The notes beneath the pieces were generated by a model. That model saw only the letters and a program-made list of their open reading frames with translations, was not told the origin of the DNA and searched no databases. The position numbers and the translations under genes are program-made. Shown piece by piece: positions 4,362 through 64,000 of a stretch of DNA of 64,000 bases; position 1 is the first letter of the stretch, and each line of letters starts with the position of its first letter. Origin of the DNA: an uncultured Bacilli bacterium (lineage in GTDB: Bacteria > Bacillota > UBA5301); contig CAZAAT010000001.1 in NCBI GenBank assembly GCA_964483175.1, positions 7,292-71,291 on the forward strand, in the 5' to 3' direction.

Positions 4362-4375
4362 AGTTACTACACCCT

Positions 4376-14060: not shown

Positions 14061-14179
14061 AGCTAGCCCCCCCTTATTTACCCCACTTCGTTATCTGGCT
14101 ATGATTTCCTCTGTTCCCATCCTAGCGATACTCCACATATAATAATCTGGTTTTACTTTTAGGGCAAGGAGTGGTCTAG

Positions 14180-14524
14180 ATGCAGAAGAAGCACCTCTTT
14201 GATCTGCAGTTTTTTGCCGACAATGAAACCGATAACGAGGTAACAGACAAGCCCGGCAAGCCTAAGCGAAAAACGCCGACCAAACGAGAAACGGCTGTTC
14301 CAAAGAAAAGCCGTTCATATAATACCCGTAAGAAGAAAAAAAAGATTGTTCCTGATTTTGATGAAGATAACCTGATCCGTTATGTGGTTCAACCCGGAGA
14401 TACGATTTATAAGCTCGCTCGTAGGTTTCATTCAACTCCACGGCAAATTTGCGAGCTAAATAACCTGCATAAACCAACCCTGCTCGTCCCGGGCGATGTT
14501 ATTGTGTTGCCGGAAGACTTCTAA
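14180..14524 (+). CDS. Small LysM-domain protein with lysine-rich N-terminal tail
   Basis: C-terminal LysM VVQPGDTIYKLARRFHSTPRQICELNNL...GDVIVLP and basic N-terminal half. RBS AAGGAG. Confidence 0.6.
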   Translation: MQKKHLFDLQFFADNETDNEVTDKPGKPKRKTPTKRETAVPKKSRSYNTRKKKKKIVPDFDEDNLIRYVVQPGDTIYKLARRFHSTPRQICELNNLHKPTLLVPGDVIVLPEDF

Positions 14525-14540
14525 AGCCAGGTAAAATGAA

Positions 14541-14588
14541 GGGGCTGTCTCAAAAAATTATCAGTATTGAGACAGCCCTCTATTTTTA
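14541..14588. terminator. Bidirectional intrinsic terminator between convergent LysM genes
   Basis: 12-bp perfect inverted repeat GGGCTGTCTCAA-(13 nt)-TTGAGACAGCCC flanked by T-run (TCTATTTTT) on the plus side and A-run on the minus side. Confidence 0.6.
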
Positions 14589-16256: not shown

Positions 16257-16290
16257 GCTCCTTCCCCCTTTATCAAACTATCTGTACATC

Positions 16291-17406: not shown

Positions 17407-17490
17407 CAAAAACCACCCTCCCCAAAGCGGCATTGCTAAGCCACCAGCCAGCATATGCGCTAATAAGGAGGGTGGTGCGAGTCCTACTAT

Positions 17491-19461
17491 TTATCCGGCG
17501 ATATTTTCACCTTTGAGGTCAACGTCGCCGAAGAAGTGAGGTAGAGCCTCACTAACCGAAGCAACCGGGATAATCTCAACCCCCCGGATGTTTGGTGGAA
17601 TATCGGAGGTATTTTCCTGCGGGATTAAAACCTTTTTAATGCCGGCTTGTTTAGCCCCATAAATCTTCTCGTAAACCCCACCGACCGGCCTAATCTTGCC
17701 CTGAATCGAGATCTCACCAGTCATCGCTACATTCTGATGGATCGGCCAACCTTCAATAGCACTGATTATCGCAATCAGAATGGCAGCCCCGGCAGAAGGG
17801 CCGTCGATCCGGCCGCCGCCCACCACATTCACATGAACATCATAATCCCTGATCTCCTTACCGGTTAGCCGCCGCAGTACCGAAGCCGCATTAAATACTG
17901 AATCTTTGGCCATGCTTCCGGCGGTCTCGTTGAATCGCAGCTGGCCCTTGCCCGTCTCTCGGGCTGGAAAAGCTACAGCTTCAATCTCAATTACCGAACC
18001 GATAAACCCTGCTACCCCGAGGCCAAAGATATGTCCGACCTCTCTGGTATCAGATCCCTTCAAAGTGACATAAGGTGTCAGCCGGGAAGACTGGAAAACC
18101 TCGGTCAAGTCGGCGATGCTAATCTCGACCCTTTGCTCGAGCTCCTCGGTGGATTCGGAGCTACTGTTCAAACGATAAAGAGCGATCCCGTAAGCATCAG
18201 CCAATAATCGAGTAGCCTGGCGCCCCTCAATGGTATAATCGGCAATCAGTTCTGCCACCCCAGGTTCGAGTTGAGCCCCGATTCGTTCAGCCGATTCCTT
18301 GACGATCTGCTGAACATGGATCGGCGTCAAAGGTTCGAAGTAAATCTCGGCGCACCTAGATCGTAAAGCCGGGTTGATCTCGGAAGGTTCTCTGGTTGTA
18401 GCACCGATTAGAATAAAATCAGCTGGTGCTCCTTCTTCGAATAGTTTCTTAATGTATTTCGGGATGTTGGGATCCTCCGGATCATAATAAGCTGAATCAA
18501 AATATACCCGCTTATCCTCCAAGACCTTTAGCAGTTTATTCTGCAGCATCAGATCCATCTCACCAATTTCGTCGATGAACAGAATGCCACCATGTGCCTC
18601 TGTAACTAAGCCCGGTTTTGGCTCCGGAATGCCGCTTTCAGCTAAGTCACGCCGCGCCCCCTGGTAAATCGGATCATGAACAGAACCTAGCAAGGGGTTG
18701 GTAACCTCCCGCGGATCCCAGCGTAATGTCGTTCCATCGACCTCTACAAACTTGGCCGTCTCGTCAAACGGGGTATATTTTAATTGTTTGGCAGCTTCTA
18801 AGGCCAACCGCGCAACCGTGGTCTTGCCTACCCCTGGTGGTCCGTACAAGATTACATGCTGCGGAAACGGAGAAGCAATCTTAGACATAATCCCTCGTAC
18901 CGCCCGGTCTTGACCGACAACCTCGGCAATAGTCTTGGGTCGGAAGGCCTCCACAGCCGATTTGGAGAGAGCCTTCTGTTCAAGAATCTCTAATTCAGCG
19001 TACTTTTTCAGGGTCTGGGCATTATCCGGCCCGGCATCTTCTTTAAGCACCTGCATCCGAATTTCTCGGACATATTCCTCATGGCGCTCTTGCATCTTTT
19101 CGGCAATTTTCTTTTCAATCTGCTCCTCAACCGTGCGACGAGCCAATATTTCGGCGATTTCAGTCTGAAGCTCATCCAAGATCTGCGGAATCTCATCATG
19201 ACGAGGCAGATCCTCAATGGTTGGATCTTCAAAAATAATCCGCTCCAGCGCTAACACCCGATCTCGAACGTCATCTGAACGCATCAAGTGCAAAGCCTCT
19301 AATTTGCCGGCCCGCAGGACCAAACGGTCAGAACCAAAAATATCCGAAAGCAAACCAAAGAGCGCATTGACTTGCAGAACCAACTGATCTTCGGATAAAA
19401 AATCTCGCCCAAATACGTCCTTCTCTTCCCCTTTACGAAACCGTTCAACAAAACCCCTCAT
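17491..19461 (-). CDS. Lon-family ATP-dependent protease (AAA+ module plus S16 Ser-Lys protease domain; LonB/LonC-like)
   Basis: Walker A ILYGPPGVGKTT, sensor/arginine-finger region, and C-terminal protease motif IDGPSAGAAILIAIISA. 656 aa. Confidence 0.8.
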   Translation of the reverse strand: MRGFVERFRKGEEKDVFGRDFLSEDQLVLQVNALFGLLSDIFGSDRLVLRAGKLEALHLMRSDDVRDRVLALERIIFEDPTIEDLPRHDEIPQILDELQTEIAEILARRTVEEQIEKKIAEKMQERHEEYVREIRMQVLKEDAGPDNAQTLKKYAELEILEQKALSKSAVEAFRPKTIAEVVGQDRAVRGIMSKIASPFPQHVILYGPPGVGKTTVARLALEAAKQLKYTPFDETAKFVEVDGTTLRWDPREVTNPLLGSVHDPIYQGARRDLAESGIPEPKPGLVTEAHGGILFIDEIGEMDLMLQNKLLKVLEDKRVYFDSAYYDPEDPNIPKYIKKLFEEGAPADFILIGATTREPSEINPALRSRCAEIYFEPLTPIHVQQIVKESAERIGAQLEPGVAELIADYTIEGRQATRLLADAYGIALYRLNSSSESTEELEQRVEISIADLTEVFQSSRLTPYVTLKGSDTREVGHIFGLGVAGFIGSVIEIEAVAFPARETGKGQLRFNETAGSMAKDSVFNAASVLRRLTGKEIRDYDVHVNVVGGGRIDGPSAGAAILIAIISAIEGWPIHQNVAMTGEISIQGKIRPVGGVYEKIYGAKQAGIKKVLIPQENTSDIPPNIRGVEIIPVASVSEALPHFFGDVDLKGENIAG

Positions 19462-23574: not shown

Positions 23575-24441
23575 TTATTCTCCTATTACTTTCAGAGCTA
23601 ATTCAGGTTTGCCCATCGGAAAGATGTGTGCTCCCGCCGCCCGCGTACGAAGATACGCAAGTATTTCCCGGGCAATAAGCACGCCCTCTTCAGAATTACC
23701 TGATTTCACCCGCTCGAGCACCTCGGCAGGAATATTAATTCCTGGCACCTTTTCTGCCAGGTATTTAGCTGAACGAAAATTCTTCAAGGGGAGAATACCA
23801 TAGAGAATCGGCAACTGCAAGTGGGCAGTAGCTGCTTGAAAACGCTCGAACTGCTCCGGAGAAAAGATTGGCTGAGTCTGTACAAATCCGGCCCCGGCCT
23901 TGGCTTTTCTTTCTAGTCTGGCTACTTCTGCTGCCAAGTCAGGAGCGGTCGGATTAGCTACCGTTCCAATGAAAAAATCAGTCGGCGCAGCCAATTCCTT
24001 CTGTGAGAGGGCAACACCCCGGTTTAAGGAGTCGGCCATGGCAATAAGACCAACCGAATCGACATCGAAGACACCGGTAGCTGAGGGATGGTCGCCATTT
24101 TCGGGAGGATCGCCTGTTAAAGCGAGGATATTCTGCACCCCCAAAGCCGCGGCACCAAGTAGCTCTGCCTGCAACCCCAGCAAATTACGATCCCGGCAGG
24201 TTAAGTGAAAAATGACCTCCAGACCCCATTTTTCTTGAATTAGATAGGCTAAGGCAATCGGACTCATCCGTAAGGTAGCCATCGGACTATCAGCAATATT
24301 TACCGCTGCAAACCGCTCAGTTAATGGGCCAATCTCTGCAAGTGTCTGACTCGGATCGGAGCCGGCTGGGGGCTCCATCTCCACCGTCAGGACAAACTCC
24401 CCCTTGGCTAACCGCTCCCGTAGCGATAATTGCGTCTTCAC
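23575..24441 (-). CDS. metF: 5,10-methylenetetrahydrofolate reductase
   Basis: 288 aa MetF fold with FAD-binding/TIM barrel motifs (...FHLTCRD..., ...LALTGD...). Overlaps the metH stop by 4 nt. Confidence 0.85.
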   Translation of the reverse strand: MKTQLSLRERLAKGEFVLTVEMEPPAGSDPSQTLAEIGPLTERFAAVNIADSPMATLRMSPIALAYLIQEKWGLEVIFHLTCRDRNLLGLQAELLGAAALGVQNILALTGDPPENGDHPSATGVFDVDSVGLIAMADSLNRGVALSQKELAAPTDFFIGTVANPTAPDLAAEVARLERKAKAGAGFVQTQPIFSPEQFERFQAATAHLQLPILYGILPLKNFRSAKYLAEKVPGINIPAEVLERVKSGNSEEGVLIAREILAYLRTRAAGAHIFPMGKPELALKVIGE

Positions 24442-26873
24442 TTCCCCATCCCCCTTACCTGTTTTAACAGGCGCTTCGCCTCCTGAACACCGGCTACAGC
24501 ATCCTTACCATAACCCGCTGCCCCGATCTCTTTGGCGTAATCTGCCGTTACTACTGCTCCGCCAACTAAAACAGGTAGTTGTGGAGCTGCTTCCCGTAGC
24601 CTCTGCACGGTTTTGGCCATCGCCGGTAGGGTCGTGGTCATCAAAGCACTCAATAAGACAAGGTCAACCTGTTCAGCCACGGCCACACGAACAATTTCCT
24701 CTACCGGTACATCCTTACCCAAATCCAGCATGCTAAAGCCGTGATTCTCCAAGATCACCTTGACGATGTTCTTGCCGATATCATGGATATCTCCTTCGAC
24801 GGTAGCGATAAGCGCCCGGCCAGCCACAACCCGATCATCCAGCGGAAAGCGGTCCTTAATTATGGCAAAAGCTTTTTGGGCGGCCTCTGCTGACAGCAAG
24901 AGGTTGGGTAAAAAATACTCGCCCTGTTCATACTTGGCTCCCACTACTTCCAGGGCCGGCGTTAAGATCTCGGTTACCAGCTTCAGCGGATCCATTCCCG
25001 CTGATAATAGTCTTTCGACCACCGGAGCTACCCCCTCACGATCCCCCGAAACCACTTGCTTTGCTAACAGCTGGTGGTCATTGTTGGACCGTGTCTCTCT
25101 CTGCGGGGCTTTGTTCTGGGCTTCTTTGCCGCCGAAAACAGAGAGATATCTGGTAGCGCCCTGATCACGCCCTGCCAGTAAGTTTGCTGCAACAATAGTA
25201 TCTCTGGTTGAATCGATTAAGGGGTTTATTATGGCAGCATCAAGGCCGCTGCTGATAGCCATGGCTAAAAAAGCATCATTTAGCGGAATCCGATTGGGTA
25301 GACCATGAGAGATGTTGCTAATGCCGAGGACACAACAGACCCCGAGTTCTTGCTTAATTAGTTGAATTGCTTTGAGCGTCTCCCGGGCGGACTGCTGATC
25401 CACTCCGACCGTCATGGTTAAACAATCGATCATGATCTCACTGGGGTCGAGTCCATAACTCTGCGCGGTCCGGACAATCAGCTCCGCGGCAGCAAGTCGT
25501 TCTCTAGCCGACTGAGGGATGCCTTGCTCAGTAATCGTCAACCCAATAACAGCCGCACCATATTTTTTAGCAATCGGCAAGAGCTGAGCAAGACTTTCCT
25601 TTTTGGCCGTAACCGAATTCAGCAAAGCCTTGCCTTGATAAATGGAAACTCCGGCCCGTAAGACCTCCGGAGTAGCGCTATCGAGTACCAGAGGCAAACC
25701 GGTAACTCGTTCGACCGCCGGAACCGCTTGTCTAATTGCCGCAACCTGATCAATACCGGCGACGCCAACATTAAGATCTAATAGTTCGGCCCCGATTTCT
25801 GCCTGCTGCCGGGCCTCCCGAGATACCTCAATCATGGCCCCGCTTGCAATATCAGCGGCTAACTGTTTTCGTCCGGTTGGATTAAGGCGCTCCCCGATTA
25901 TGCGCACCGGTTGATTGGCCCCAATGGCAACATGCTCAGTACGTGAGGCCAAATAGAGCACACCTTGTGGTCTGGGAGAGGAGACCACCGGGGTACCGCC
26001 AAGGTGAGCGGCGAATCTAAGATGATCCGGAGTTGTGCCACAACATCCACCAACAATTGCTGCCCCGCTCGATTGGAGTCGTTCCAGTCCGGCTACGAAC
26101 TCTTCCGGATTAGCTGGAAAAACGGTGCGTCCCCCTTCTAGTCTCGGCAGGCCAGCATTCGGCTCGGCGAGGATCGGGGATAGACCCAGTGCAGCCATTC
26201 GCTCGATGATCGGTACCAGTTCTTGCGGACCGAGAGAGCAGTTGGCGCCTACCACACTCGCTCCAGCCGCGCTCAAGGAAATGACCGCAGCCTCCGGAGT
26301 TGCTCCGGTTAGCGTGCGCCCCGAAGCCTCAAAGTTCATACTGCACCAAACCAGCACCCCAAGCTCTTTAGCTGCCAGAATAGCCTGGCGTGCCTCGGCT
26401 AAATCGCTCATGGTCTGGATGTAAATCAGATCTGCACCGGCTTCGACCAAAGACCTTGCCTGCCGGAGAAACGCGGTATAGGCGGTCTGTAGCGGGAGGG
26501 ATCCATATGGTTCTAGTAGCTCCCCAAGTGGGCCGATAACACCAGCGACCCCGGCCGTGCCATCTCGTCCGGCTTGAACAATCGCTTGCCGCGCTAATTT
26601 AACCCCGTGCCAATTGAATGTCTCAACCTCTTCAGCCAGCCCAAACTGGGCTAATTTGAATTGGTTAGCACCAAAGGTGTTGGTCTCAATGATTTGTGCC
26701 CCTGCCTGGAGGTAGGATTGGTGCACCGACTGGACCAGATCGGGCCGGCTAACATTCCACGCTTCGGGACACTCCTTCACCGACAAGCCGAGGGCCTGTA
26801 AAGTCGTACCCATAGCCCCATCCAGAAGGATCAATCCCCGGCCAAGCTGCGCCGTTAGCGAAGAAGCGTTCAC
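24438..26873 (-). CDS. metH: Cobalamin-dependent methionine synthase (homocysteine-binding, pterin-binding, B12-cap and B12-binding modules; no activation domain)
   Basis: 811 aa; Hcy domain (GGCCGTTPDH), pterin-binding domain, and C-terminal B12-binding DxHxxG (GDIHDIGKNIV) with Rossmann segment. Ends after the cobalamin domain. Confidence 0.9.
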   Translation of the reverse strand: MNASSLTAQLGRGLILLDGAMGTTLQALGLSVKECPEAWNVSRPDLVQSVHQSYLQAGAQIIETNTFGANQFKLAQFGLAEEVETFNWHGVKLARQAIVQAGRDGTAGVAGVIGPLGELLEPYGSLPLQTAYTAFLRQARSLVEAGADLIYIQTMSDLAEARQAILAAKELGVLVWCSMNFEASGRTLTGATPEAAVISLSAAGASVVGANCSLGPQELVPIIERMAALGLSPILAEPNAGLPRLEGGRTVFPANPEEFVAGLERLQSSGAAIVGGCCGTTPDHLRFAAHLGGTPVVSSPRPQGVLYLASRTEHVAIGANQPVRIIGERLNPTGRKQLAADIASGAMIEVSREARQQAEIGAELLDLNVGVAGIDQVAAIRQAVPAVERVTGLPLVLDSATPEVLRAGVSIYQGKALLNSVTAKKESLAQLLPIAKKYGAAVIGLTITEQGIPQSARERLAAAELIVRTAQSYGLDPSEIMIDCLTMTVGVDQQSARETLKAIQLIKQELGVCCVLGISNISHGLPNRIPLNDAFLAMAISSGLDAAIINPLIDSTRDTIVAANLLAGRDQGATRYLSVFGGKEAQNKAPQRETRSNNDHQLLAKQVVSGDREGVAPVVERLLSAGMDPLKLVTEILTPALEVVGAKYEQGEYFLPNLLLSAEAAQKAFAIIKDRFPLDDRVVAGRALIATVEGDIHDIGKNIVKVILENHGFSMLDLGKDVPVEEIVRVAVAEQVDLVLLSALMTTTLPAMAKTVQRLREAAPQLPVLVGGAVVTADYAKEIGAAGYGKDAVAGVQEAKRLLKQVRGMGK

Positions 26874-26902: not shown

Positions 26903-27592
26903 CTAGTCACGAAATTGGCAGTCTTCTAACGAACATCGGCTGCACTCGCTTTTTCCCTGTTGCTTTAGGTCGTTAGTTCCAATCCCGATTAACGCAGTAA
27001 TCGATTTGCGCGGAACTAACAGCCCGGATTTATTTAGGCTAATCCCAACCCGATCTCCCTGGGTTAATGGGAATAGGCTGTGTTGTGCTTCTAGTGGCCA
27101 ATCATTGTACCCGGGACTGATGCGATCACCAGCGATTAATCCGATCTGCCCAGCTCGTTGGCGCACTGTTTGATTGACCCTCTCCGCTAAGGATTCGACT
27201 GCCACCGACCCCGCGGCGTCTAATACAGCGCCCTTAGTGTATTCGCCCCGCTCGAAAAGGGAATTTACCTCATCCTCAAGTTTGGAGCCAATAGTTACAG
27301 CAAAAAGATATGCCCGACTGATTCGGCCAAGACGCCGAATAGTTCGGGCCCCGGATATTTGCAGGCTGTCGCCGATTCTGATCTCCTGTTCAGAGATTAC
27401 CGCAGGATAGTCAAGGCCGATCCCCGCTGGTCTGACGAGCTCAAAGGCGAACTCACACATTTGCCGGCAAACTGCCATTGCTTCGGGGGTCGGGGGGCTT
27501 TTCTGAGCGCGATGACCCAGGTACCGTAAGACCTCGGAGAGTTCGATCCGAACCTCAAGATCTGTCCACTGCCCGTCTAACCCGATGCGCAT
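26903..27592 (-). CDS. Stand-alone methionine synthase activation-domain protein (Met_synt_B12 / AdoMet-binding reactivation module)
   Basis: 229 aa; motifs ...YLFAVTIGSKLED..., ...RISPGYNDWPLEAQHSLFPL... characteristic of the MetH C-terminal reactivation domain. ATG has GGAGG 8 nt upstream. Immediately upstream of metH, as in Clostridia/Thermotoga split MetH. Confidence 0.75.
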   Translation of the reverse strand: MRIGLDGQWTDLEVRIELSEVLRYLGHRAQKSPPTPEAMAVCRQMCEFAFELVRPAGIGLDYPAVISEQEIRIGDSLQISGARTIRRLGRISRAYLFAVTIGSKLEDEVNSLFERGEYTKGAVLDAAGSVAVESLAERVNQTVRQRAGQIGLIAGDRISPGYNDWPLEAQHSLFPLTQGDRVGISLNKSGLLVPRKSITALIGIGTNDLKQQGKSECSRCSLEDCQFRD

Positions 27593-28391
27593 TCCAATCC
27601 TCCGAACTGTATTTGCTCAGTACCAAATCATTCGCCAAGCGGCGTTCTGAGGACGACAATTTTGAACTAATCAAGGAGATCTCAAAGGTATGTTCCCAAC
27701 CGAAAGATAAAGCATCTACCACCTCATCGAAACATACATTGCGCCCTAAAGTGGTATGTAAATCTGCTACTGAGGCTTGCAAGGTTTCGGCGAGCTCAGG
27801 GTGTTGTTGGCCAGATAGTAGATAGACAAGGCGAGCCGCATCAAAGCGGAGCAATATCGAACCGTGCTGGAGGATTACCCCATGTTGGCGAAGCTGCGCG
27901 CTACCGACGAGTTTGCGGCCAGCCACTACAATCTCGTAGGAACTGGTGGCATCAAAGCAAGCTGCCGAGGCAGGTGTAGATTTTTTGCGCCGACCGGGAA
28001 CCATCTCAGCCGGGACACCCAGATCCCTTAGTCCCTGCAGAATACCCTGGCTTAAAACCCGATAGGAATCGGTCACCCCACCAGAAGATAGCAAGCGATG
28101 ATTCTCCGGCAGAATCAGCGCATAGGTGACCTCATGGTCATGTAAAACCGCACGCCCACCGGTTGGCCGTCGCACGCAGTCCACCCCGAGCTCACGGCAG
28201 GCCTCCAAACTTACCGAACGGCCTCGGTCCTGGAAATGGCCCAGGCTGATACAAGGGGGGGACCACCCGTAAAACCGGATGATCGGCAGGCTATGACCAG
28301 TTGCCACCTGGTTAAGCAGCATCTCGTCGATGGCCATATTTTCCGCCCCCGTACGGAAACCGGTGTTGAGCAACCTCCACTCATTACTCAT
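27555..28391 (-). CDS. Lipoate/octanoate-protein ligase, LplA/LipM family (catalytic BPL/LPL domain only, ~278 aa)
   Basis: WRLLNTGFRTGAENMAIDEMLL...RFYGWSPPCISLGHFQ...RRPTGGRAVLHDHEVTYALIL...RKLVGSAQ (catalytic Lys in K-x-x-GSAQ). The ATG at 28391 has GGTGGAG upstream. Length equals Bacillus LipM-type octanoyltransferases and lacks the LplA C-terminal accessory domain. Confidence 0.75.
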   Translation of the reverse strand: MSNEWRLLNTGFRTGAENMAIDEMLLNQVATGHSLPIIRFYGWSPPCISLGHFQDRGRSVSLEACRELGVDCVRRPTGGRAVLHDHEVTYALILPENHRLLSSGGVTDSYRVLSQGILQGLRDLGVPAEMVPGRRKKSTPASAACFDATSSYEIVVAGRKLVGSAQLRQHGVILQHGSILLRFDAARLVYLLSGQQHPELAETLQASVADLHTTLGRNVCFDEVVDALSFGWEHTFEISLISSKLSSSERRLANDLVLSKYSSEDWNAHRVRRAVDRS

Positions 28392-28432
28392 TTTTAACTC
28401 CACCAACCTTGCCAGTTATACCCAATTATACA

Positions 28433-29389
28433 CTACAGATCCAGGTCTGCAAAGGCCTTTTCGATCTCAATACCGGTCAAAGGTCGGGGATAATTGTAAA
28501 AGGTCTGTCCGGGGCGCTCATTGTAATAGGGGCGATTGCATCCGGGACAACCGCTGGTACGAAAAGCTGTACCGGCGGAGAGCAACCCCTCCAACTCGGA
28601 ACGAGAATAGCCGAAATCGCGGATCTGACCGTCCGCAGAAAAAGATAGCTCTAAGGGCAACCCCGAAGCCAACAAGTAATTTAGCACCTGAATCCGACGG
28701 TACTGATCAAGCGGTGGTGGAGGTAGCTTGGCTAACCTGGTCCCGGGAACCGGGGTGAAGGCGAAAAGACCCACCCGCACTCCAACAGACCAAAAATCCT
28801 TTAGGATCTCGGCAGCATCTGCCTCGGTCTCACCAAGTCCGATGATCAAATGGGTCGATATCTTGCCTGGATAAGTTAGGGCTGCCTCTTTAATTAAACG
28901 GTAAACTCGGGAGTAGTCCCCGTTTTTGGTCTGGTGAAAAACCCAAGGAGTCGCGGCATCAAGTGGAATACCGATCCGGTCCAATCCGGCTTGCAGTAGT
29001 CGGCCAACCTCTTCCGTGCTTTCCGGTAGGAGTGAGCTACTGATCGGAATTTCTGCCAGACCCGGAGTTTTCCTAATCTTCCCAACAAGCTCATGCAACT
29101 GGCTCACCCGCTGCGGCCCGATTACGGTTTGGATACAAATGCGGGCAAATGAATTCTGCAGCAATTGCACTTGTTCCGGGCGGAGCAAATCCGCAACCTC
29201 AAAGGTCGGCCAAGAAATCCGCGACAACCACTTGTGGTCACTCTGGCTGGACCTGGCTTGCGGGCAGAAGCCACAATCGCTACGACAGTCACCTGCCATC
29301 AATAAGTAACAGGTCGACGGCTTCTCTACCATCTTTGCCCGAGCGAGGCCCAGGACAACGGCGCTGCCTAAACTGACTCTAATCTGCAT
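28433..29389 (-). CDS. Radical SAM protein, second of a tandem pair in the gcv operon; candidate LipS-type lipoyl synthase subunit
   Basis: Single CxxxCxxC (CRSDCGFC) about 30-50 aa from the N-terminus, a GLGE-type glycine-rich segment, and extra Cys pair CPGC near the C-terminus. The start is ambiguous: 29389 ATG, 29410 GTG or 29332 ATG. No LipA-type N-terminal CX4CX5C. Function inferred from context. Confidence 0.5.
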   Translation of the reverse strand: MQIRVSLGSAVVLGLARAKMVEKPSTCYLLMAGDCRSDCGFCPQARSSQSDHKWLSRISWPTFEVADLLRPEQVQLLQNSFARICIQTVIGPQRVSQLHELVGKIRKTPGLAEIPISSSLLPESTEEVGRLLQAGLDRIGIPLDAATPWVFHQTKNGDYSRVYRLIKEAALTYPGKISTHLIIGLGETEADAAEILKDFWSVGVRVGLFAFTPVPGTRLAKLPPPPLDQYRRIQVLNYLLASGLPLELSFSADGQIRDFGYSRSELEGLLSAGTAFRTSGCPGCNRPYYNERPGQTFYNYPRPLTGIEIEKAFADLDL

Positions 29390-30278
29390 CTCCATCACCA
29401 TAAAGAACACAACACTGCCAAAAATCTTCTTGCAGCATGCCTAGATATTCTGCTAACTGAAGCGCCCCGGGAGTTGGTTGAACTATCGCGTTTACCCCTG
29501 CCAACACGGCATAACGGTCAACTTCTTGACGATATCTGCCCGCCGGCCGCATACAGCCAAGGGTTACCCGCAGTTGCGGATAGTCGCGGCCCAGGGTGGC
29601 AAAGAACTCCGCTACCTCCGAAGGCTGAGGTGGTTGGCGATCAGCCAATCTTGTCCCCTTGGTGGGAATGAAGATCAGTACCACTAATTCACGAAATCCA
29701 GCCTTTTCTAGCAGCTTGACCGCATTTAATTCCGAGCTGAGCCCAGGCTCTTCAGACAGGCCCAGACAGAGATGTGGCACGACGCGCCGAAATCGGGATA
29801 ACAACAACAGCGAGTCCAATGCTTCAGCAACTGAGTAGTTCAAACCATAAATCTTCCGTAGGGTAGATTCATCACCGACAAAATCACAGGAAAAGACGGA
29901 GGCTACCTCAGCAAGTTGCTGAGCAGCCTCGAGACTCTGCACATAACCAGGGTGCAAGTTTAATTTATATTTCTTCCTTAGGGTCTTGATCGTTGCCAAG
30001 TGCGGCAGGATCGGAACAACCCCGGCTCCATCACAAGCCCCGCTAATCAGAAGACTTTTCCACGGGGAGGATTCCCTTTGCGCAACCTCCAGCAGAGGTT
30101 TCATCGCCTTTAGGTAGTGCCCTCCACAATGGGCACAATCCTGTGGACAAGCCTCCGAGGTAACCCTAACGGTTGCGGTGCCTGTCGGACGAACCGCGAG
30201 TAAAGTCGGGGCATGGTATTTTAACCGCTCCTGACGGACCTCCAACAAGCCAAGTTCGAGTTGGCTAAACCTCTCCAC
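29379..30278 (-). CDS. Radical SAM protein, first of a tandem pair in the gcv operon; candidate LipS-type lipoyl synthase subunit
   Basis: 299 aa with GTG start 2 nt after the gcvPB stop (UAAuGUG). CxxxCxxC (CPQDCAHC), ISGACDG SAM-binding-like motif, and additional cysteines (CLGLS, GCMRPAG, C-terminal QCC) that could ligate an auxiliary cluster. Confidence 0.5.
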   Translation of the reverse strand: MERFSQLELGLLEVRQERLKYHAPTLLAVRPTGTATVRVTSEACPQDCAHCGGHYLKAMKPLLEVAQRESSPWKSLLISGACDGAGVVPILPHLATIKTLRKKYKLNLHPGYVQSLEAAQQLAEVASVFSCDFVGDESTLRKIYGLNYSVAEALDSLLLLSRFRRVVPHLCLGLSEEPGLSSELNAVKLLEKAGFRELVVLIFIPTKGTRLADRQPPQPSEVAEFFATLGRDYPQLRVTLGCMRPAGRYRQEVDRYAVLAGVNAIVQPTPGALQLAEYLGMLQEDFWQCCVLYGDGDAD

Positions 30279-30279
30279 A

Positions 30280-31749
30280 TTAACCCCGCCATCTCAGATC
30301 CGGATTGCGAGCTGCCGCGGTTTCATCTAACCTGTACACCGGCAGCTTAGTTGGTGCCTGCTGTAATAGCTCCGGATTTTGCTCGGCTTCGTGGGCAATT
30401 TGACGCATCACCTTGACAAAATCATCCAAGGTCTCTTTGCTCTCCGTCTCCGTAGGCTCGATCATCATCGCCTCCTCGACAATCAGCGGGAAGTAGATCG
30501 TCGGAGCATGAATACCAAAATCGAGCAATCGTTTGGCCATATCCAGAGTTTTCACCCCGTTGGCCTTTTGCCGTGAACCGGATAGCACAAACTCGTGCAT
30601 ACAGCGGCGCTGATACGGCAGATCAAAGTAGTCTTTTAATTGTTCTAACAAATAGTTGGCGTTGAGCACCGCATTTTCCGCAACCGCCTTCAGCCCGCTA
30701 GAGCCCATTTGTCGGATGTAGGTGTAAGCCTTCAACGCTACGAGAAAATTACCGTAGTAACCCTTGACTCTGCCGATTGACTGCGGTAAATCGTAATTAA
30801 ACTGGTAATTATCCGCCGCTTTGATCACTCGTGGTAGCGGCAGAAACGGCTCAAGTATCTTTTTGACACCGACCGGACCGGAGCCCGGGCCGCCGCCGCC
30901 ATGCGGTGCCGCGAAGGTCTTGTGCAAATTTAGATGGATTACATCAAAGCCCATATCTCCCGGACGGGTGATCCCGAGAATGGCGTTGGCATTTGCTCCA
31001 TCATAATACAAGAGTCCGCCGGCATTATGAATAATCTCAGCTATCTCCAGAATGTTCTCTTCAAACAAGCCCAGAGTATTCGGGTTGGTTAACATCAGTG
31101 CTGCTGTTTGCGGACCAACGACCCGCCGCAAAGCCTCAATATCGACATTGCCCCGGTCATCGGATGGCACCTCCACCACTTTGAAACCGCACATAGCCGC
31201 GCTGGCCGGATTGGTTCCGTGCGCCGAGTCCGGAACAATTACCTCTCGGCGCATCGCCAACTCCCCGCGATGGCGATGGTAAGCCTTGATCAACATCAGC
31301 CCTGTCAACTCGCCATGAGCTCCGGCGGCTGGTTGCAGAGTAAAAGCATCCATACCCGTTATTTCACAGAGGTACTGCTCGAGCTCAAAGATCACCTGTA
31401 AAGAACCCTGGCAAGTCTCTTCTGGTTGGAGGGGATGAATACCGGCAAACCCATCCAAGCTGGCCACATCTTCGTTGATCTTCGGATTGTATTTCATTGT
31501 ACAGGAACCAAGAGGATAAAAACCCCTATCTACGCTATGGTTGAGCTCTGACAGTCTGGTAAAATGGCGAACAACCCCGAGCTCACTCACCTCCGGTAAG
31601 ACCGGAGGATTTTGCCGCAACAAGTTTTCTGGGAGGATGGCTGATAAAGGTTGGGCTGGAACATCTAAAGCCGGCAGTGAGAAACCGGTCCGCCCGGGGA
31701 CGCTTTCGGCAAAGATCGGCTTAACTCCAGCGGTATGACTGACTCTCAT
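30280..31749 (-). CDS. gcvPB: Glycine dehydrogenase (decarboxylating) subunit 2 (P-protein C-terminal half, PLP-binding)
   Basis: 489 aa with PLP-lysine motif [18 protein letters not shown]. Overlaps gcvPA by 4 nt. Confidence 0.9.
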
Positions 31750-33089
31750 AACAACCCCCCCATTACTTTAACCAGATAATCCAGCTCTTCTTTGGTCCGC
31801 TGCTCGGTAACGCAAAAGAGCACTAGATCATCGAGCTCAGGATAGTATCTGGCCAGAGGAAGCGGTCCAAGGATTCCATATTCGACCAACCGGCTGAACA
31901 GCTCTTCCGGGTTGGCCTTGACCCGTAGGGTAAACTCATGGAAAAATGGGCCCGGTAAACCTGGACTGACCCCTTCAATGTTCAACAGTTGATCGTACAA
32001 ATAATGTGCTTTCTGGACGGAATGCTCAGCTACCTTCGCCAAGCCTTGCGGGCCTAACAGCGAAAGATATACTGTTGCCGCCAACGCATTAAGGGCTTGG
32101 TTCGAACAAATATTCGAAGTGGCCTTCTGGCGCCTGATATGCTGTTCTCTCGCCTGCAGAGTCAATACGTACCCGCGGTTTCCTGCGGCATCAGTTGTAG
32201 CCCCGACAATTCGCCCCGGCATGCGCCGCAGATACTTTTCGCGGCAGGCCAGATAGCCCAAGTGAGGGCCGCCAAAAGCCATCGGATTCCCCAACGCTTG
32301 CCCCTCACCACAGGCGATATCTACACCTAATTCTCCTGGTGGTTTCAGTAGACCGAGAGCGATCGGATTGGCCGCACAGATCAGCAAAGCTCCGTGGGCG
32401 TGCGCGATTTCAGCTAGTTGCTCGATACCTTCTTCAATTTGACCAAAAAAATTGGGATATTGCACGATAACTGCAGCGGTTTGCTCATCGACAAGATCCC
32501 GAAGCTGTTCCACAGAAGGCTTTCCGTCACTAAGTGCCCCAACAACCAGCTGTAAATCCAGGAAGTCACAATAAGTCGCTAAAACGCGTTGGTACTCCGG
32601 ATTAATGCTGGCTGAGGCCACAACTTTGGATCGCCGGGTAGCTCCCGTAGCCATTAAGGCCGCCTCCACCAACGCAGTAGCTCCATCATACAAAGATGCG
32701 TTAGAGACATCGAGTCCAGTAAGGTTGCAAATCATGGTCTGATACTCGTAAATAGCCTGGAGGGTTCCTTGGCTAATCTCTGCTTGGTACGGAGTATAGG
32801 CGGTATAGAACTCGGAGCGCCCCAAAATATGCCGAACAACGCTCGGGATATAGTGGTCATATGTACCAGCGCCTAAAAAAACCATAGCCTCAGCTGAACT
32901 AATATTTCGCGCAGCCAAAGACTTCAGGTTTTTTATCAAGATCGGTTCCGGTTCCGGCGCGGGTAATTTCAGCTCTCTGGTCAAGCGCAGACTAGCCGGG
33001 ATATCCGCAAAAAGCTCGGCAACCTGCTCTACGCCAATAGCTGCCAGCATCTCAGCTTGATCGGCAGGGGTATTTGCGATAAATGACAC
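31746..33089 (-). CDS. gcvPA: Glycine dehydrogenase (decarboxylating) subunit 1 (P-protein N-terminal half)
   Basis: 447 aa with N-terminal region ...[15 protein letters not shown]...[13 protein letters not shown] typical of GcvPA. Confidence 0.9.
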
Positions 33090-33093
33090 AGGC

Positions 33094-33477
33094 TCACTCT
33101 CCTTCTATAAAAGCCTCATACTCCTGGTTAGTCATCAGCTTATCGAGTTCGGTTAGGTCCAGCATCTCAATTACCGCAATCCATCCATCGTTATAGGGAT
33201 CCTGATTTAATAATTCCGGACTATCTTCCAAATTGTCATTGACCTCAACAACTGTTCCAGAAATCGGTGCATAAACATCCGATACGGCTTTAACTGACTC
33301 GACCACCGCAAAATCATCGCCCTTAACGACCTCCTGACCGGGCGAGGGAAGGTCGACAAAGACTACATCACCTAATTCTTTTTGCGCATAATCGGTAATC
33401 CCGACAATGGCCCGTTTTCCACTGATTCTAATCCATTCGTGTTCCTTGGTGTACTTTAAATCAGAAGGGTTCATCAC
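33094..33477 (-). CDS. gcvH: Glycine cleavage system H protein (lipoyl carrier)
   Basis: 127 aa with lipoyl-lysine motif FAVVESVKAVSDVYAPISG. Confidence 0.9.
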   Translation of the reverse strand: MMNPSDLKYTKEHEWIRISGKRAIVGITDYAQKELGDVVFVDLPSPGQEVVKGDDFAVVESVKAVSDVYAPISGTVVEVNDNLEDSPELLNQDPYNDGWIAVIEMLDLTELDKLMTNQEYEAFIEGE

Positions 33478-33489
33478 TAATACCTCCGT

Positions 33490-34599
33490 TTACGATCTTT
33501 TTGTATATGGTTGAACAAATGGGACCGAAACTACTTGGGCTTCAACCAGTTTTTCGCGGATCTTGACCCAAATCCTACTTCCCGGCTCTGAATAGGGAAG
33601 GGTTACATAACCAAGGCCGATATTCTCCTCCAAAGTTGGTGCGAAAGAACCACTGGTTACCGACCCAATAACCTCCGCAGAACTATTTAAGATTTCATAT
33701 CCGTGACGGCAGACACCCCGCCCGATCATTTTGAACCCAATCAAAGATCTAGAAAGACCTTCTTCTTTCTTGGCGACTAACGCTTTTTTACCGATAAAAT
33801 CGCCTTTATCTAATTTCACCGTCCAACCCAAACCGGCTTCCCACGGGCTTATTTCCTCAGTCAACTCCTGGCCGTACAACGGATAAGCCAATTCTAAACG
33901 CAAGGTGTCCCGGGCCCCGAGTCCAACGGGCACAAGCCCGGTACCAGCACCGGCCTGCCTCAGCTCTTGCCAGAGAAAGCTTGCATCAGCTGCATCGACA
34001 TATAGCTCAAAACCGCGCTCCCCGGTATAGCCAGTTGCCGAAATCATGGCCGGCCGACCAGCCACCCTGCCCTCGACAAACGAATAGAACTTTAATTGGG
34101 AGAGATCCTCAGAACAAAGCTTGCCTAAAATCTCCTCGCTCTTGGGGCCTTGGATCGCTAACAAGGCGGTTTCGGCCGACTGGTTAACCAAATTAACGCC
34201 GGTACTCGGCAAATAATTGGCGAACCACTCCCAATCCTTGTCGGTATTGGCTGCATTAACCACCACCAGATACCGTTCACGATCGTAGCAATAGACAATG
34301 AGGTCGTCGACGACCCCACCATTTTCAGTACAGACTAAATTATACTGCGCCTTACCTGGCATCAACTTTGCCAGGTTGTTGGTCAAAAGTCGGTTCAAAT
34401 AATCATAAGCTCCCGGCCCTGATACATAGAATTCACCCATATGTGAAAGATCAAACAGTCCTGCGCTATTACGTACCGCCCGATGCTCCTCTAGGATCGC
34501 GGTATATTGAACCGGCATTTCCCAACCGCCAAAAGGAATCATCTTGGCTTTTAGGCCCACATGTTCTGCATAAAGCGGAGTTCTTTTCCATTCAGACAT
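33490..34599 (-). CDS. gcvT: Glycine cleavage system T protein (aminomethyltransferase)
   Basis: 369 aa with the GcvT fold. RBS GGAGG 8 nt before ATG. Confidence 0.9.
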   Translation of the reverse strand: MSEWKRTPLYAEHVGLKAKMIPFGGWEMPVQYTAILEEHRAVRNSAGLFDLSHMGEFYVSGPGAYDYLNRLLTNNLAKLMPGKAQYNLVCTENGGVVDDLIVYCYDRERYLVVVNAANTDKDWEWFANYLPSTGVNLVNQSAETALLAIQGPKSEEILGKLCSEDLSQLKFYSFVEGRVAGRPAMISATGYTGERGFELYVDAADASFLWQELRQAGAGTGLVPVGLGARDTLRLELAYPLYGQELTEEISPWEAGLGWTVKLDKGDFIGKKALVAKKEEGLSRSLIGFKMIGRGVCRHGYEILNSSAEVIGSVTSGSFAPTLEENIGLGYVTLPYSEPGSRIWVKIREKLVEAQVVSVPFVQPYTKRS

Positions 34600-34620
34600 A
34601 CGTCGCCCTCCTTCGCTGAA

Positions 34621-34710
34621 TAAAAAACAGAGTAGAGAATTGGCTCTCCTCTGTCCTGATGCCTGAGAGATAAACTGCTCTGATCGCTACACAGAGGTCT
34701 CTCTTAACTA
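34621..34710 (-). promoter_or_regulatory. Glycine-riboswitch-like leader element with intrinsic terminator (ON-switch architecture) upstream of gcvT
   Basis: Minus-strand RNA reads AAGAGAGACCUCUGUGUAGCGAUCAGAGCAGUUUAUCUCUCAGGCAUCAGGACAGAGGAGAGCCAAUUCUCUACUCUGUUUUUA. The block UCUCUCAGGCAUCAGGACAGAG is identical at 19 of 22 positions to the glycine aptamer 3-prime consensus ACUCUCAGGCAAAAGGACAGAG, and a GAGAGA lies upstream. CAGAGGAGAG/CUCUaCUCUG forms a terminator stem followed by UUUUUA and overlaps the aptamer P1 3-prime strand. The P2/P3a segments and a GCCGAAGGAGCAA core could not be located by eye, so this is a variant, a singlet, or only partly recognised. Confidence 0.4.
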
Positions 34711-34980
34711 GAATCACCCGGCGGGGATGATATTTATTTGCAGTCCACCATCATCTGCTATTATTTTATCTCTTTACTGGATATTCCTACCGCTAAGCCA
34801 AAAGATTTGCTCAAATAGACCAAAAAGCCGACCGAGCTATATAATATGAACGGGTTAGTTCCGTCGGCTGAGGGGGGATACTATGGAACGCATACTCCAA
34901 CTATTACTAAACCCAATCTTAAAAAGGGCACAAAAGACCGTCATTATCATTAGAAAGCGCAGAGCATAGAGTAATTATAA

Positions 34981-35030
34981 CCACCGGAAGTGCGGAAGCA
35001 CCAAGGTGGTGTTTTTTATCCGCACTTCGA
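34981..35030. terminator. Nested inverted repeats spanning the nrdJ stop codon: bidirectional terminator-like structure
   Basis: CCACC(34981-85)...GGTGG(35005-09) hairpin followed by TGTTTTTT on the plus strand. Perfect 10-bp arms GAAGTGCGGA (34987-96) / TCCGCACTTC (35019-28) give a long hairpin on the minus strand after the nrdJ TAA. Confidence 0.45.
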
Positions 35031-37277
35031 ATATCCGCAGGCAATACAGGTAATACAGCCGCTCTCATGGCTCAATTTATGCCCACACTCCGGGCACAAG
35101 GCGAAATCTTCAGCAATGGCCGCTTCTTGCTGGGCAGCCTGAGCACCCTGCGGTTTAAAAGGTAACTGCGGCTGAAAACCACCAAGAACCTGATCCTGGA
35201 ACTTCTTGATCGCTCGGGCAATGGCATCAGGACAAGAGGTCACATTAACCTCCTTACGGCGTACGCAGGCGGCACACCGGATGCCCCGGAGCTGTTCATA
35301 AATGGTTTGCACGGAAATACCGGAGCGCAAGGAGATCGAGATCAGACGGCTGGTAGCCTCAGACTGTGAAGAACAGCCACCCTCTTTGCCGGTATTGGTA
35401 AAGACCTCACAAATCCCGAATTCATCAGCATTTACACTGACGTATAAGGTTCCGCAGCCGACTTTTACCCGTTCGGTCGAACCGGTTGTTAGATCAGGGC
35501 GTGGACGTGGGGTTATATTAGTCGGATAAAGCGGTGCTGCCTCCTCTGTACTGGACTGTTGGGTCGCTTTGGTACCGGCCGTTAACACCTGTGATTCACG
35601 ACTGCCATCCCGGTAAACGGTGACCCCTTTACACCCTTCTTGATAGGCGAGTAGATATGCCTTGGCCACATCTTCCCGGGTAGCGCTCTTGGCAAAGTTA
35701 ATCGTCTTGCTCACAGCATTATCGGTATATTTCTGGAAAGCAGCCTGGATCCTGATGTGCCATTCCGGTTCGATATCGTGGGCGGTTACAAATATCCGCC
35801 GGAACTTCTCCGGAATCGACTCAATTTCTTGAACTGAGCCATGTTCAGCAACTTTCTCCATCAGCTGCGGAGTATAAAAACCCTCTTTCTTGGCGATCTC
35901 CTCGAACAATGGATTAACTTCGACCAATTTCGTGTTATCCATAACATTGCGCACGAAGGCTAAGGCAAATAGCGGCTCGATTCCACCTGATGCCTCAGCA
36001 ATGATGCTGATCGTGCCGGTCGGAGCGATGGTTGTGGTGGTAGCATTACGAACCTTAACTCCCAACGGTTCATAGGTGCTACCCTCATAATTCGGAAAGA
36101 CTCCGCGCTCCTCAGCCAAATCAGCCGAAGCAGCCCGAGCGGTCTGCTGAATGAAAGACATAACCGCTTCTGCTGTTTCTACAGCTTTTTCGGAGTTATA
36201 GGGGACCCCTAATCTAATTAGCAAGTCGGCAAAGCCCATCACGCCCAGTCCGATTTTGCGGTTGGCCTTGACCATTTCAGTAATCCGTTCTAACGGATAC
36301 TTACTGGCATCGATGACGTTGTCGAGGAAGCGAACGGCGATCGTAATTACGCGCTCTAACCGTTCCCAGTCAATTTCCGCGTCCTCGGTGACCATCTTGG
36401 CTAAATTGATAGAGCCGAGATTGCAGGCTTCATAGGGAAGAAGCGGCTGTTCTCCGCATGGGTTTGTGCTCTCAATCTCACCAACTTGGGGAGTAGGATT
36501 GTCCCGGTTAATCTGGTCGATAAAAATAACCCCTGGCTCGCCATTGCGCCAAGCCGCGTCAACGATTTGGTCAAAAACGTCTTGTGCAGAGAGTTTACCC
36601 ACAACTTGGCCATTTCTCGGGTTAATTAACTCATAGTCTCGGTGTTCTTTGAGAGCTACCATAAACTCATCGGTGATGGCAACCGAGATGTTGAAGTTGG
36701 TCAAGTCATCATTATTCTCTTTGGCATTAATAAAAGCGAGAATATCAGGATGGTCAACCCGGAGGATACCCATGTTAGCACCGCGACGAGTGCCGCCCTG
36801 CTTAACAGCGTCTGTCGCGGCATTAAAGACTTTCATAAATGAGATCGGACCGCTGGCAACGCCACCGGTTGATAGTACTTCATCATTACAGGGCCGTAGC
36901 CGGGAGAAGCTAAATCCAGTACCGCCACCGCTCTTATGAATCAATGCGGCATGCTTAATCGAATCAAAAATTGACTCCATCGAGTCCTCAACCGGCAAAA
37001 CAAAACAAGCCGCCAACTGTTGAAGTTCACGGCCGGCATTCATCAGGGTAGGGGAGTTTGGCATAAACTCCAAATTGGTCATAATTTCCAGGAACTGCTG
37101 CTTAATAGCTTCAACAGTCTCCTGGTCTTTGCCGTAACATTCGCTTTCGACATTAGCAATGTTTTCGGCAACACGGTTAAACATCTCATCGGGAGTCTCA
37201 ACTGCCTGTCCATTAACCTTTTTTAGATATCGTTTTTCCAAAACATTCAAGGCATTTTGCGATAACTTAACTCCCAT
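35016..37277 (-). CDS. nrdJ: Adenosylcobalamin-dependent ribonucleotide reductase (class II, NrdJ) with C-terminal Cys4 zinc ribbon
   Basis: 753 aa; class II hallmarks ...MNAGRELQQLAACFVLPVEDSMESI..., thiyl-radical loop ...STNPCGEQPL..., C-terminal CPECGHK...CITCIACGYSKCG. Confidence 0.88.
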   Translation of the reverse strand: MGVKLSQNALNVLEKRYLKKVNGQAVETPDEMFNRVAENIANVESECYGKDQETVEAIKQQFLEIMTNLEFMPNSPTLMNAGRELQQLAACFVLPVEDSMESIFDSIKHAALIHKSGGGTGFSFSRLRPCNDEVLSTGGVASGPISFMKVFNAATDAVKQGGTRRGANMGILRVDHPDILAFINAKENNDDLTNFNISVAITDEFMVALKEHRDYELINPRNGQVVGKLSAQDVFDQIVDAAWRNGEPGVIFIDQINRDNPTPQVGEIESTNPCGEQPLLPYEACNLGSINLAKMVTEDAEIDWERLERVITIAVRFLDNVIDASKYPLERITEMVKANRKIGLGVMGFADLLIRLGVPYNSEKAVETAEAVMSFIQQTARAASADLAEERGVFPNYEGSTYEPLGVKVRNATTTTIAPTGTISIIAEASGGIEPLFALAFVRNVMDNTKLVEVNPLFEEIAKKEGFYTPQLMEKVAEHGSVQEIESIPEKFRRIFVTAHDIEPEWHIRIQAAFQKYTDNAVSKTINFAKSATREDVAKAYLLAYQEGCKGVTVYRDGSRESQVLTAGTKATQQSSTEEAAPLYPTNITPRPRPDLTTGSTERVKVGCGTLYVSVNADEFGICEVFTNTGKEGGCSSQSEATSRLISISLRSGISVQTIYEQLRGIRCAACVRRKEVNVTSCPDAIARAIKKFQDQVLGGFQPQLPFKPQGAQAAQQEAAIAEDFALCPECGHKLSHESGCITCIACGYSKCG

Positions 37278-62913: not shown

Positions 62914-62917
62914 TTCC

Positions 62918-63964: not shown

Positions 63965-64000
63965 TGCTGCAACCTCCTTACTATGAGTCTTTGCACAAAC

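Follow-up and report, generated by a model that had tools for sequence, protein, structure and literature searches.

The glycine-cleavage operon in the 64,000-nucleotide (nt) stretch of contig CAZAAT010000001.1 from an uncultured Bacilli bacterium (the window, meaning the whole stretch of DNA analysed) quite probably contains a cofactor-maturation module of its own, in which a LipM-type octanoyl transferase, then the radical S-adenosylmethionine (SAM) protein LipS2 and finally the radical-SAM protein LipS1 would act on the H protein, GcvH. The two radical-SAM proteins belong to the LipS1 and LipS2 families, the ligands of their iron-sulfur clusters are conserved, their genes stand in an order that is kept in multiple genomes, and neither protein has the motifs of LipA. 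The locus is a well-conserved example of LipS1/LipS2 in an uncultured spore-forming lineage of Bacillota. Searches of the genome covered the 64-kb window, in which 40 other large open reading frames (ORFs) and 22 intergenic small ORFs were scanned with Pfam. The genes of the operon, in the order in which they are read and with positions counted from the first letter of the window, are the following.

33490-34599, minus strand: gcvT, aminomethyltransferase (T protein); NCBIfam NF001567, 465 bits (cut-off 300)
33094-33477, minus strand: gcvH, lipoyl-carrying H protein; NCBIfam NF002270, 181.6 bits (cut-off 117)
31746-33089, minus strand: gcvPA, glycine dehydrogenase subunit 1; NF001696, 643.8 bits (cut-off 364)
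30280-31749, minus strand: gcvPB, glycine dehydrogenase subunit 2; NF003346, 791.7 bits (cut-off 441)
29379-30278, minus strand: lipS1, predicted radical-SAM sulfur insertase of 299 amino acids (aa); NF053742
28433-29410, minus strand: lipS2, predicted radical-SAM sulfur insertase; NF053743; 325 aa from GTG, or 322 aa from ATG at 29401, the start chosen by gene callers
27555-28391 (ORF to TTG at 28406), minus strand: lipM, probable LipM-type octanoyl transferase; Pfam PF21948; 278 aa from ATG, 283 aa from TTG

The minus-strand order gcvT-gcvH-gcvPA-gcvPB-lipS1-lipS2-lipM is closely packed, with neighbours that overlap by up to 38 nt or stand up to 41 nt apart, and no convincing terminator is seen from gcvT to lipM. 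An earlier, sequence-only reading of this DNA had placed two overlapping radical-SAM ORFs directly behind gcvPB, and they lie at the positions it gave: the GTG of lipS1 begins one base past the TAA of gcvPB, and lipS1 overlaps lipS2 by 32 nt (GTG start) or 23 nt (ATG start). The gcvH gene is located approximately 3-4 kb upstream of the lip genes in the same gene string, and the gcv and lip genes would be transcribed together. The start of lipM is likely the ATG at 28391 (278 aa) because a Shine-Dalgarno sequence, GGTGGAG, lies 6 nt upstream of it. A sigma-70-like promoter match (TTTGCA-17-TATAAT, 10/12, a consensus match only) lies at 28425-28453 of the minus strand, across the last codons of lipS2 and 41 nt before the lipM ATG, and could drive lipM and the metH genes downstream of it from within the cluster.

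LipS1 and LipS2

LipS2 matches the hidden Markov model (HMM) NF053743 at model positions 1-292 of 292 with 337.2 bits (E 8.5e-101), above the cut-off of 270, and LipS1 matches NF053742 at model positions 6-268 of 268 with 220.7 bits (E 2.5e-65; cut-off 230). Scored against the same model, eight of 10 LipS1 homologues have 239-329 bits and the closest relative (P0002, 82% identical) has 210.2. Judged by its sequence, the LipS1 of the window belongs to a slightly divergent branch of the LipS1 clade rather than to another family. The LipS1 proteins of this lineage (P0001, P0002) score 210-221 bits, below 230, and are therefore annotated publicly just as 'radical SAM protein'.

The radical-SAM motif of LipS1 is CPQDCAHC at residues 44-51, with cluster ligands C44/C48/C51, and the ligands of its auxiliary cluster are H169, C242 (in GCMRP) and C289/C290 (in QCC); all of these residues show 100% conservation across 80 genome homologues and are invariant in a curated alignment. 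The radical-SAM motif of LipS2 is CRSDCGFC at residues 42-49, with cluster ligands C42/C46/C49, and its auxiliary-cluster ligands are C92, C288 and C291, the last two in CPGC at 288-291; these residues do not vary among 18 diverse homologues, archaeal ones included, and reach 98-100% conservation in 58 genome homologues. The motifs singled out by the sequence-only reading (CPQDCAHC, GCMRP, QCC, CRSDCGFC and CPGC, together with K-x-x-GSAQ in the third protein) were all located in the sequences. LipS1 also carries a short acidic tail, VLYGDGDAD, after the CC pair; most relatives are without it.

Mutagenesis of the enzymes of Thermococcus kodakarensis identified C27/C31/C34, H159, C230, C276 and C277 as residues that TkLipS1 needs and C39/C43/C46, C85, C276 and C279 as residues that TkLipS2 needs; both proteins have auxiliary [4Fe-4S] clusters, and the sulfur at C8 is inserted first, by LipS2, with the sulfur at C6 inserted next, by LipS1 (Neti et al. 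2022, PMC9585515). The ligand pattern of these enzymes is repeated in order in the window, as Cys plus His plus a C-terminal CC in LipS1 and as Cys plus CxxC in LipS2, the equivalence of individual ligands being drawn from order, spacing and the family HMMs rather than from direct alignment to the T. kodakarensis sequences. The open frames of the window contain two CX3CX2C motifs in total, one in LipS1 and one in LipS2. A motif scan found no LipA motif CX4CX5C anywhere in the window, as had been said of the two proteins, and no RSSY in either protein or in the window.

Other family identities were tried and rejected. LipA was rejected because its model (TIGR00510, cut-off 310) gives 23.4 bits for LipS2 and no match for LipS1, and because the motifs CX4CX5C and RSSY are missing; BioB was rejected because TIGR00433 (cut-off 225) gives 19.6 bits for LipS1 and 41.7 bits for LipS2; and the scores for HmdB, MoaA and RimO are far under their cut-offs. 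AlphaFold2 (AF2) models of both proteins are confident (mean predicted local distance difference test score, pLDDT, 93.5 for LipS1 and 89.2 for LipS2) and have a BioB/HydE-like fold, in line with the literature, which places LipS proteins in a BioB-like megacluster. In a PDB sequence search there was no solved homologue of LipS1 or LipS2 below E 0.05, and therefore no LipS structure for comparison.

The claim of the sequence-only reading that the pair is a LipA-independent synthase of the LipS1/LipS2 type agrees with the equivalog HMMs, the conserved ligands and the synteny with gcv genes. Two of the checks that it had proposed came out in the same direction: profile comparison against LipS1/LipS2, LipA and BioB sets gave full-length LipS matches and left the others far below their cut-offs, and cysteine mapping with structure prediction gave auxiliary ligands of the LipS pattern in confident BioB/HydE-like models. 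Its fallback, an uncharacterised two-radical-SAM system, is excluded by the assignment to LipS1 and LipS2.

Probable acyl transfer to GcvH

The third protein consists of an LplA/B catalytic domain alone (PF21948, 137.6 bits; PF03099) at residues 21-233 of 283. The ligase models that match it are NF053750 LplA_large (110.7 bits, cut-off 480), NF053751 LplAB (95.4 bits, cut-off 550, matched in its catalytic part alone, at positions 98-345) and TIGR00545 lipoyltrans (67 bits, cut-off 280), and no LipM model of NCBIfam matched even at E<=10. The LplB/accessory domain (PF10437) is absent from the third protein and from the window ORFs scanned, and in 52 related loci lipM is not followed by any conserved small ORF on the plus strand. 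Homologues that are 43-51% identical and approximately 275 aa long are found in Bacillota, and several of them, from Kroppenstedtia, Tumebacillus, Sporomusa and Melghirimyces, are named Octanoyltransferase LipM in UniRef. In 17 aligned homologues, several of them named LipM, an invariant cysteine in SAAC-F-D precedes the lysine of GRKxxGSAQ by 15 residues. The putative acyl-thioester cysteine of the third protein is C150 in the numbering of the ORF (C145 from the ATG), in SAACFD, and the conserved lysine is K165 (K160 from the ATG), in GRKLVGSAQ; the SAACFD cysteine is 96% conserved in 50 genomes. LplA of Thermoplasma acidophilum has no cysteine at this position. LipM of Bacillus subtilis is annotated by UniProt/HAMAP with C150 and K165, at equal spacing. 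The active-site cysteine of LipM sits on a loop of its own (Cronan 2020, PMC7253636), and a bioRxiv paper confirms C150 for LipL only, not for LipM.

The third gene is therefore likely to encode a LipM-type octanoyl transferase and not a ligase, because the protein has a single domain, the invariant cysteine and LipM-named homologues, and because LplB is neither present in the window nor conserved beside lipM. The earlier description of an LplA/LipM-type ligase stands as far as the single catalytic domain, the K-x-x-GSAQ motif and the LipM-like length are concerned; the role of a ligase does not, given HMM scores far below the cut-offs, no accessory domain and the LipM cysteine.

The lipoyl-lysine of GcvH is K63 in VESVK63A, a residue with a conservation of 97% or more among 64 homologues. 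GcvH contains zero cysteines and is therefore not an LbpA-type protein. Pfam scans of the 40 large and 22 small ORFs found no other lipoyl-domain protein and no LipA, LipB or LplB domain, so that gcvH encodes, as the sequence-only reading had it, the sole lipoylated protein of the window; neither an E2 protein nor LipL is present there.

In the proposed mechanism, LipM would take octanoyl from octanoyl-acyl carrier protein (octanoyl-ACP) onto its active-site cysteine and pass it to Lys63 of apo-GcvH, the donor being assigned by analogy with LipM of Bacillus subtilis. LipS2 is predicted to insert sulfur at C8 of octanoyl-GcvH: with SAM and the [4Fe-4S] cluster of its radical-SAM motif it would abstract hydrogen at C8, and it would supply sulfur from its auxiliary cluster (C92, C288, C291). 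LipS1 is predicted to insert sulfur at C6 of 8-mercapto-octanoyl-GcvH by the same chemistry, with its own auxiliary cluster (H169, C242, C289, C290), and so to yield lipoyl-GcvH. One SAM would be consumed per sulfur insertion, and the sulfur would be drawn each time from the enzyme's own auxiliary cluster; the order of C8 before C6 and the sacrifice of the auxiliary clusters are carried over from the Thermococcus enzymes.

Synteny, operon leader and alternative readings

When GTDB species, each represented by one genome, were scanned by pattern, 500 LipS1 relatives were confirmed, the best 80 of which were taken with 10-kb flanks. Counting for each feature the loci whose flanks suffice, the arrangement around lipS1 is as follows.

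gcvPB immediately upstream of lipS1: 50/73 loci
lipS2 immediately downstream of lipS1: 57/77 loci
lipM present: 53/72 loci
gcvH within 10 kb: 65/80 loci

The complete order gcvT-H-PA-PB-lipS1-lipS2-lipM is found in at least 38 of the best 80 loci. It occurs in the complete genomes of Sporomusa ovata, S. acidovorans, S. silvacetica, S. malonica, S. rhizae and Desulforudis sp. Tu-874, in the draft genomes of Propionispira arboris and P. raffinosivorans, and in metagenome-assembled genomes (MAGs) of Thermincola and Pelosinus. The gene lpd, for dihydrolipoyl dehydrogenase (L protein), lies directly after lipM in 34/52 loci; it was not found in the 64-kb window, where genes for a split MetH and for methylenetetrahydrofolate reductase (MTHFR) occupy its place. 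Identity to the proteins of the related species L002 is 81-84% for LipS1, LipS2 and LipM and 84-91% for the Gcv proteins.

Eleven loci of Anaerolineae/Chloroflexota (L013, L015, L018, L029, L037, L043, L050, L052, L055, L059 and L073) have the variant order lipS1-gcvH-gcvPA-gcvPB, and in these lipS2 and lipM were not detected beside lipS1 with a 50% coverage filter; lipS2 may lie elsewhere in these genomes or be too divergent for the filter. In a Thermincola ferriacetica MAG (L064), the region 14098-18280, a few kb downstream of the gcv-lipS1-lipS2-lipM operon, has a second tandem glycine riboswitch and a further aptamer in front of a second and divergent pair of gcvPA/gcvPB-like genes (34-38% identity).

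The leader before gcvT is 416 nt long, and the part of it that resembles a riboswitch is the following.

34622-34724, minus strand: operon leader, apparent glycine riboswitch remnant with terminator-like hairpin, recognised by alignment with L002 and L003

A predicted terminator-like hairpin, CAGAGGAGAG-CCAA-TTCTCTACTCTG followed by T6, occupies 34622-34653, shortly before the ribosome-binding site of gcvT. Rfam RF00504, the glycine riboswitch (gathering score 32 bits), has no match in 34550-35100 even at E<=1, and Rfam at gathering score finds nothing in the whole window. In relatives RF00504 matches at the corresponding position with 42.8-74.7 bits, and a glycine riboswitch precedes gcvT in 6/7 examined; in those organisms glycine presumably induces the cofactor-maturation genes along with the enzyme itself. 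The lack of a match at E<=1 led to the alignment that uncovered the deletion: aligned with L002 and L003, the leader keeps both ends of the aptamer, and approximately 52-65 nt are missing, including the CGCCGAAGGAGCA ligand-binding core; within the conserved GGAGAG, moreover, one G is replaced by A. Two other assemblies, Logan SRR8449813 and ENA ERZ27247346, in which the leader was located through the upstream ribonucleotide reductase gene, carry exactly this leader sequence, and an assembly error is therefore unlikely. As far as alignment can tell, the leader is a decayed glycine riboswitch without its ligand-binding core.

Several observations weigh against a module in which LipM, LipS2 and LipS1 mature GcvH. 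The score of LipS1 is 9 bits short of the NCBIfam trusted cut-off; the leader keeps a terminator yet is without the riboswitch core; the best PDB match of the third protein is the LplA ligase subunit of Thermoplasma (E 3e-19); and we know of no biochemistry for any combination of LipM with LipS1/S2, the characterised systems employing ligases. These last two points bear on the reading of the third protein as a ligase, either stand-alone or as catalytic subunit of an LplA-LplB enzyme whose LplB would be encoded elsewhere in the genome, that activates free octanoate or lipoate with ATP, the part of the radical-SAM pair being unchanged. LplA_large and LplAB are indeed its best NCBIfam matches, every experimentally proven LipS1/S2 pathway begins with a ligase, and Lpl is also present in 64/106 LipS1/S2 Firmicutes (Tanabe et al. 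2023), but the scores are 4-6 fold under the cut-offs (110.7 vs 480; 95.4 vs 550), the accessory domain is absent from the protein and from the 64-kb window, no conserved ORF stands beside lipM in relatives, the cysteine 15 residues before the lysine is invariant here and missing in Thermoplasma LplA, and the nearest homologues are Bacillales proteins that carry a LipM annotation. The likeness to Thermoplasma LplA is accounted for by descent, because LipM derives from archaeal LplAB via loss of LplB (Tanabe et al. 2023, PMC10332631). A ligase is thus unlikely, and the LipM-type transferase is preferred.

Far less probable still is that the operon is decaying or silent, with its core deleted, its terminator kept and its genes unexpressed, lipoylation being served by genes elsewhere: the glycine-binding core has been lost though relatives keep it, the hairpin and U-tract remain, and the lpd that follows lipM in most relatives is missing, but all seven genes are intact and full-length with every catalytic residue kept, their products retain the high identity to the L002 proteins given above, and promoter-like sites lie within the cluster. 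The least probable alternative, to which we give almost no weight, is that the pair represents another BioB-like subfamily (biotin synthase, HydE or PylB-like) that is near gcv by chance or acts on a target other than the octanoyl arm of GcvH. Biotin synthases and HydE are the nearest solved structures in the fold search with both AF2 models (LipA is more distant), LipS1 has no Pfam match at E<=0.01, and homologues are annotated as 'biotin synthase-related' by the Joint Genome Institute (JGI); that label, however, is a historical misannotation corrected by Neti et al. (PMC9585515), the bioB and lipA scores are a small fraction of their cut-offs, the LipS models match over their full length (E 1e-65 and 1e-101), the pattern of auxiliary ligands is that of LipS and not of BioB, and the linkage to gcvH/gcvP is kept across Bacillota and Chloroflexota.

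Beyond the module of LipM, LipS2 and LipS1 itself, a wider proposal can be entertained only tentatively, with the balance somewhat against it: that in this uncultured lineage the three enzymes are the sole lipoylation route, with no LipA and no ligase, and that GcvH is the sole lipoylated protein. The operon, moreover, has lost its riboswitch core and lpd and is joined to the split-metH/MTHFR genes. If the proposal were true, the lineage would have a fully de novo, ACP-fed, LipA-independent pathway of a kind not known to have been demonstrated biochemically in any organism, and glycine cleavage together with its cofactor supply would have been rewired from glycine induction toward methyl-group/SAM metabolism.

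Neighbouring genes and known lipoylation systems

The genes downstream of lipM are co-directional with it and have overlapping or very short junctions.

26903-27592, minus strand: 229-aa protein resembling a MetH activation domain (weak domain signal); overlaps lipM by 38 nt
24438-26873, minus strand: MetH-like protein of 811 aa without activation domain, part of a split methionine synthase
23575-24441, minus strand: MTHFR, after the split metH

A split metH and MTHFR downstream of lipM are common to L002, L003 and L011 only, the closest relatives, and these genes are context outside the lipoylation module. The 229-aa ORF was considered as an accessory subunit for lipM and rejected, as it has a weak MetH-activation-domain signal and is not beside lipM in most relatives. 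Just upstream of the gcv leader, at 35016-37277, is a ribonucleotide reductase with a TSCPD domain. Elsewhere in the window, a selenocysteine cluster occupies 59575-63970 of the minus strand (selB 59575-61500, selA 61501-62913, and selD); the selD frame runs upstream through an in-frame TGA (MSVEQVKLTQLSSKAG-U-AAKFGPG), and SelD is therefore itself a selenoprotein. ARAGORN and Rfam searches of the window yield no tRNA at all, tRNA-Sec included. A SipL/LysM protein and a spore germination operon of gerA type, with GerA, GerAC and a spore permease, lie in the regions 3270-7128 and 14586-16256 and show the organism to be an endospore former, and a pair of genes for an indolepyruvate-type ferredoxin oxidoreductase is found at 663-3000.

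The pathway and the gene arrangement are already known and are common in anaerobic Bacillota. In bacteria, LipS1/S2 genes form clusters with genes for a further radical-SAM protein, for the H protein and for a member of the BPL/LplA family (Neti et al. 2022, PMC9585515), and a bacterial sLpl(AB)-LipS1/S2 pathway has been proven by Tanabe et al. (2023, PMC10332631), who also link lipS1/S2 of Sporomusa to canonical lipoate genes and describe genomes with LipS1/S2 and LipM. In their S4 Table, LipS1 and LipS2 occur together in 106 Firmicutes genomes, 83 with LipM and 64 with Lpl; 42 of the 106 also have LipA, 42 have both LipM and Lpl, and 41 have LipM without Lpl. These counts are at phylum level, and the names Sporomusa and Pelosinus were not found in the supplements. 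Novelty is low because the NCBIfam LipS models and these two studies already cover the pathway and its clustering; the high novelty that the sequence-only reading had assigned to the locus is not borne out, since the models and both papers precede it and the gene order recurs in the related genomes counted above. What the comparison adds is that the usual partner of LipS1/LipS2 in the closest Bacillota gcv operons is LipM and not a ligase, octanoyl-ACP-fed LipS having so far been inferred from genomes alone.

Reportedly, LipS1/LipS2 were discovered in T. kodakarensis by Jin et al. in 2020. LipS1 (TK2109) and LipS2 (TK2248) of that archaeon are, like the proteins of the window, separate BioB-like radical-SAM proteins with CX3CX2C and an auxiliary [4Fe-4S] site, with H, C and CC in LipS1, C and CxxC in LipS2, and neither CX4CX5C nor RSSY. 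The archaeal genes, however, are separated by over 130 genes and have an Lpl-N/Lpl-C ligase as partner, whereas the genes of the window overlap inside the gcv operon and have a LipM-type partner; LipS1 of the window also differs in coming from a slightly divergent bacterial lineage and in its acidic C-terminal tail after the CC pair.

The sLpl(AB)-LipS1/S2 system of sulfur oxidisers is reportedly a subject of Cao et al. 2018. In these organisms (Hyphomicrobium denitrificans, Thioalkalivibrio), as in the window, the genes of LipS1 and LipS2 adjoin those of an acyl-loading enzyme and of a substrate of the GcvH family (Tanabe et al. 2023, PMC10332631). The sulfur oxidisers differ in having an ATP-dependent ligase with an accessory domain, LbpA substrates of the sHdr system and often lipT, whereas the window has a LipM-like partner and a genuine GcvH without the cysteines of LbpA, with no lipT seen. 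The LipM-LipA(-LipL) route of B. subtilis resembles the proposed module in its single-domain LipM, which octanoylates GcvH specifically and has the conserved Cys/Lys pair, and in that GcvH is lipoylated first; it differs in that the one-polypeptide LipA inserts sulfur and LipL relays the product to E2, in place of which the window has LipS2 and LipS1, with neither LipL nor E2.

The closest counterparts are the gcv-lip operons of Sporomusa, Pelosinus, Propionispira, Desulforudis, Thermincola and Syntrophomonadaceae, which have equal gene order and orientation and encode proteins with 38-46% (LipS1), 35-46% (LipS2) and 38-49% (LipM) identity to those of the window. Most of them continue into lpd (34/52) and have a functional-looking glycine riboswitch (6/7), whereas the operon of the window continues into metH/MTHFR and follows a coreless remnant. 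Cultured carriers of the shared operon, such as Sporomusa ovata, are convenient systems in which the pathway from LipM through LipS2 and LipS1 to lipoyl-GcvH could be proven.

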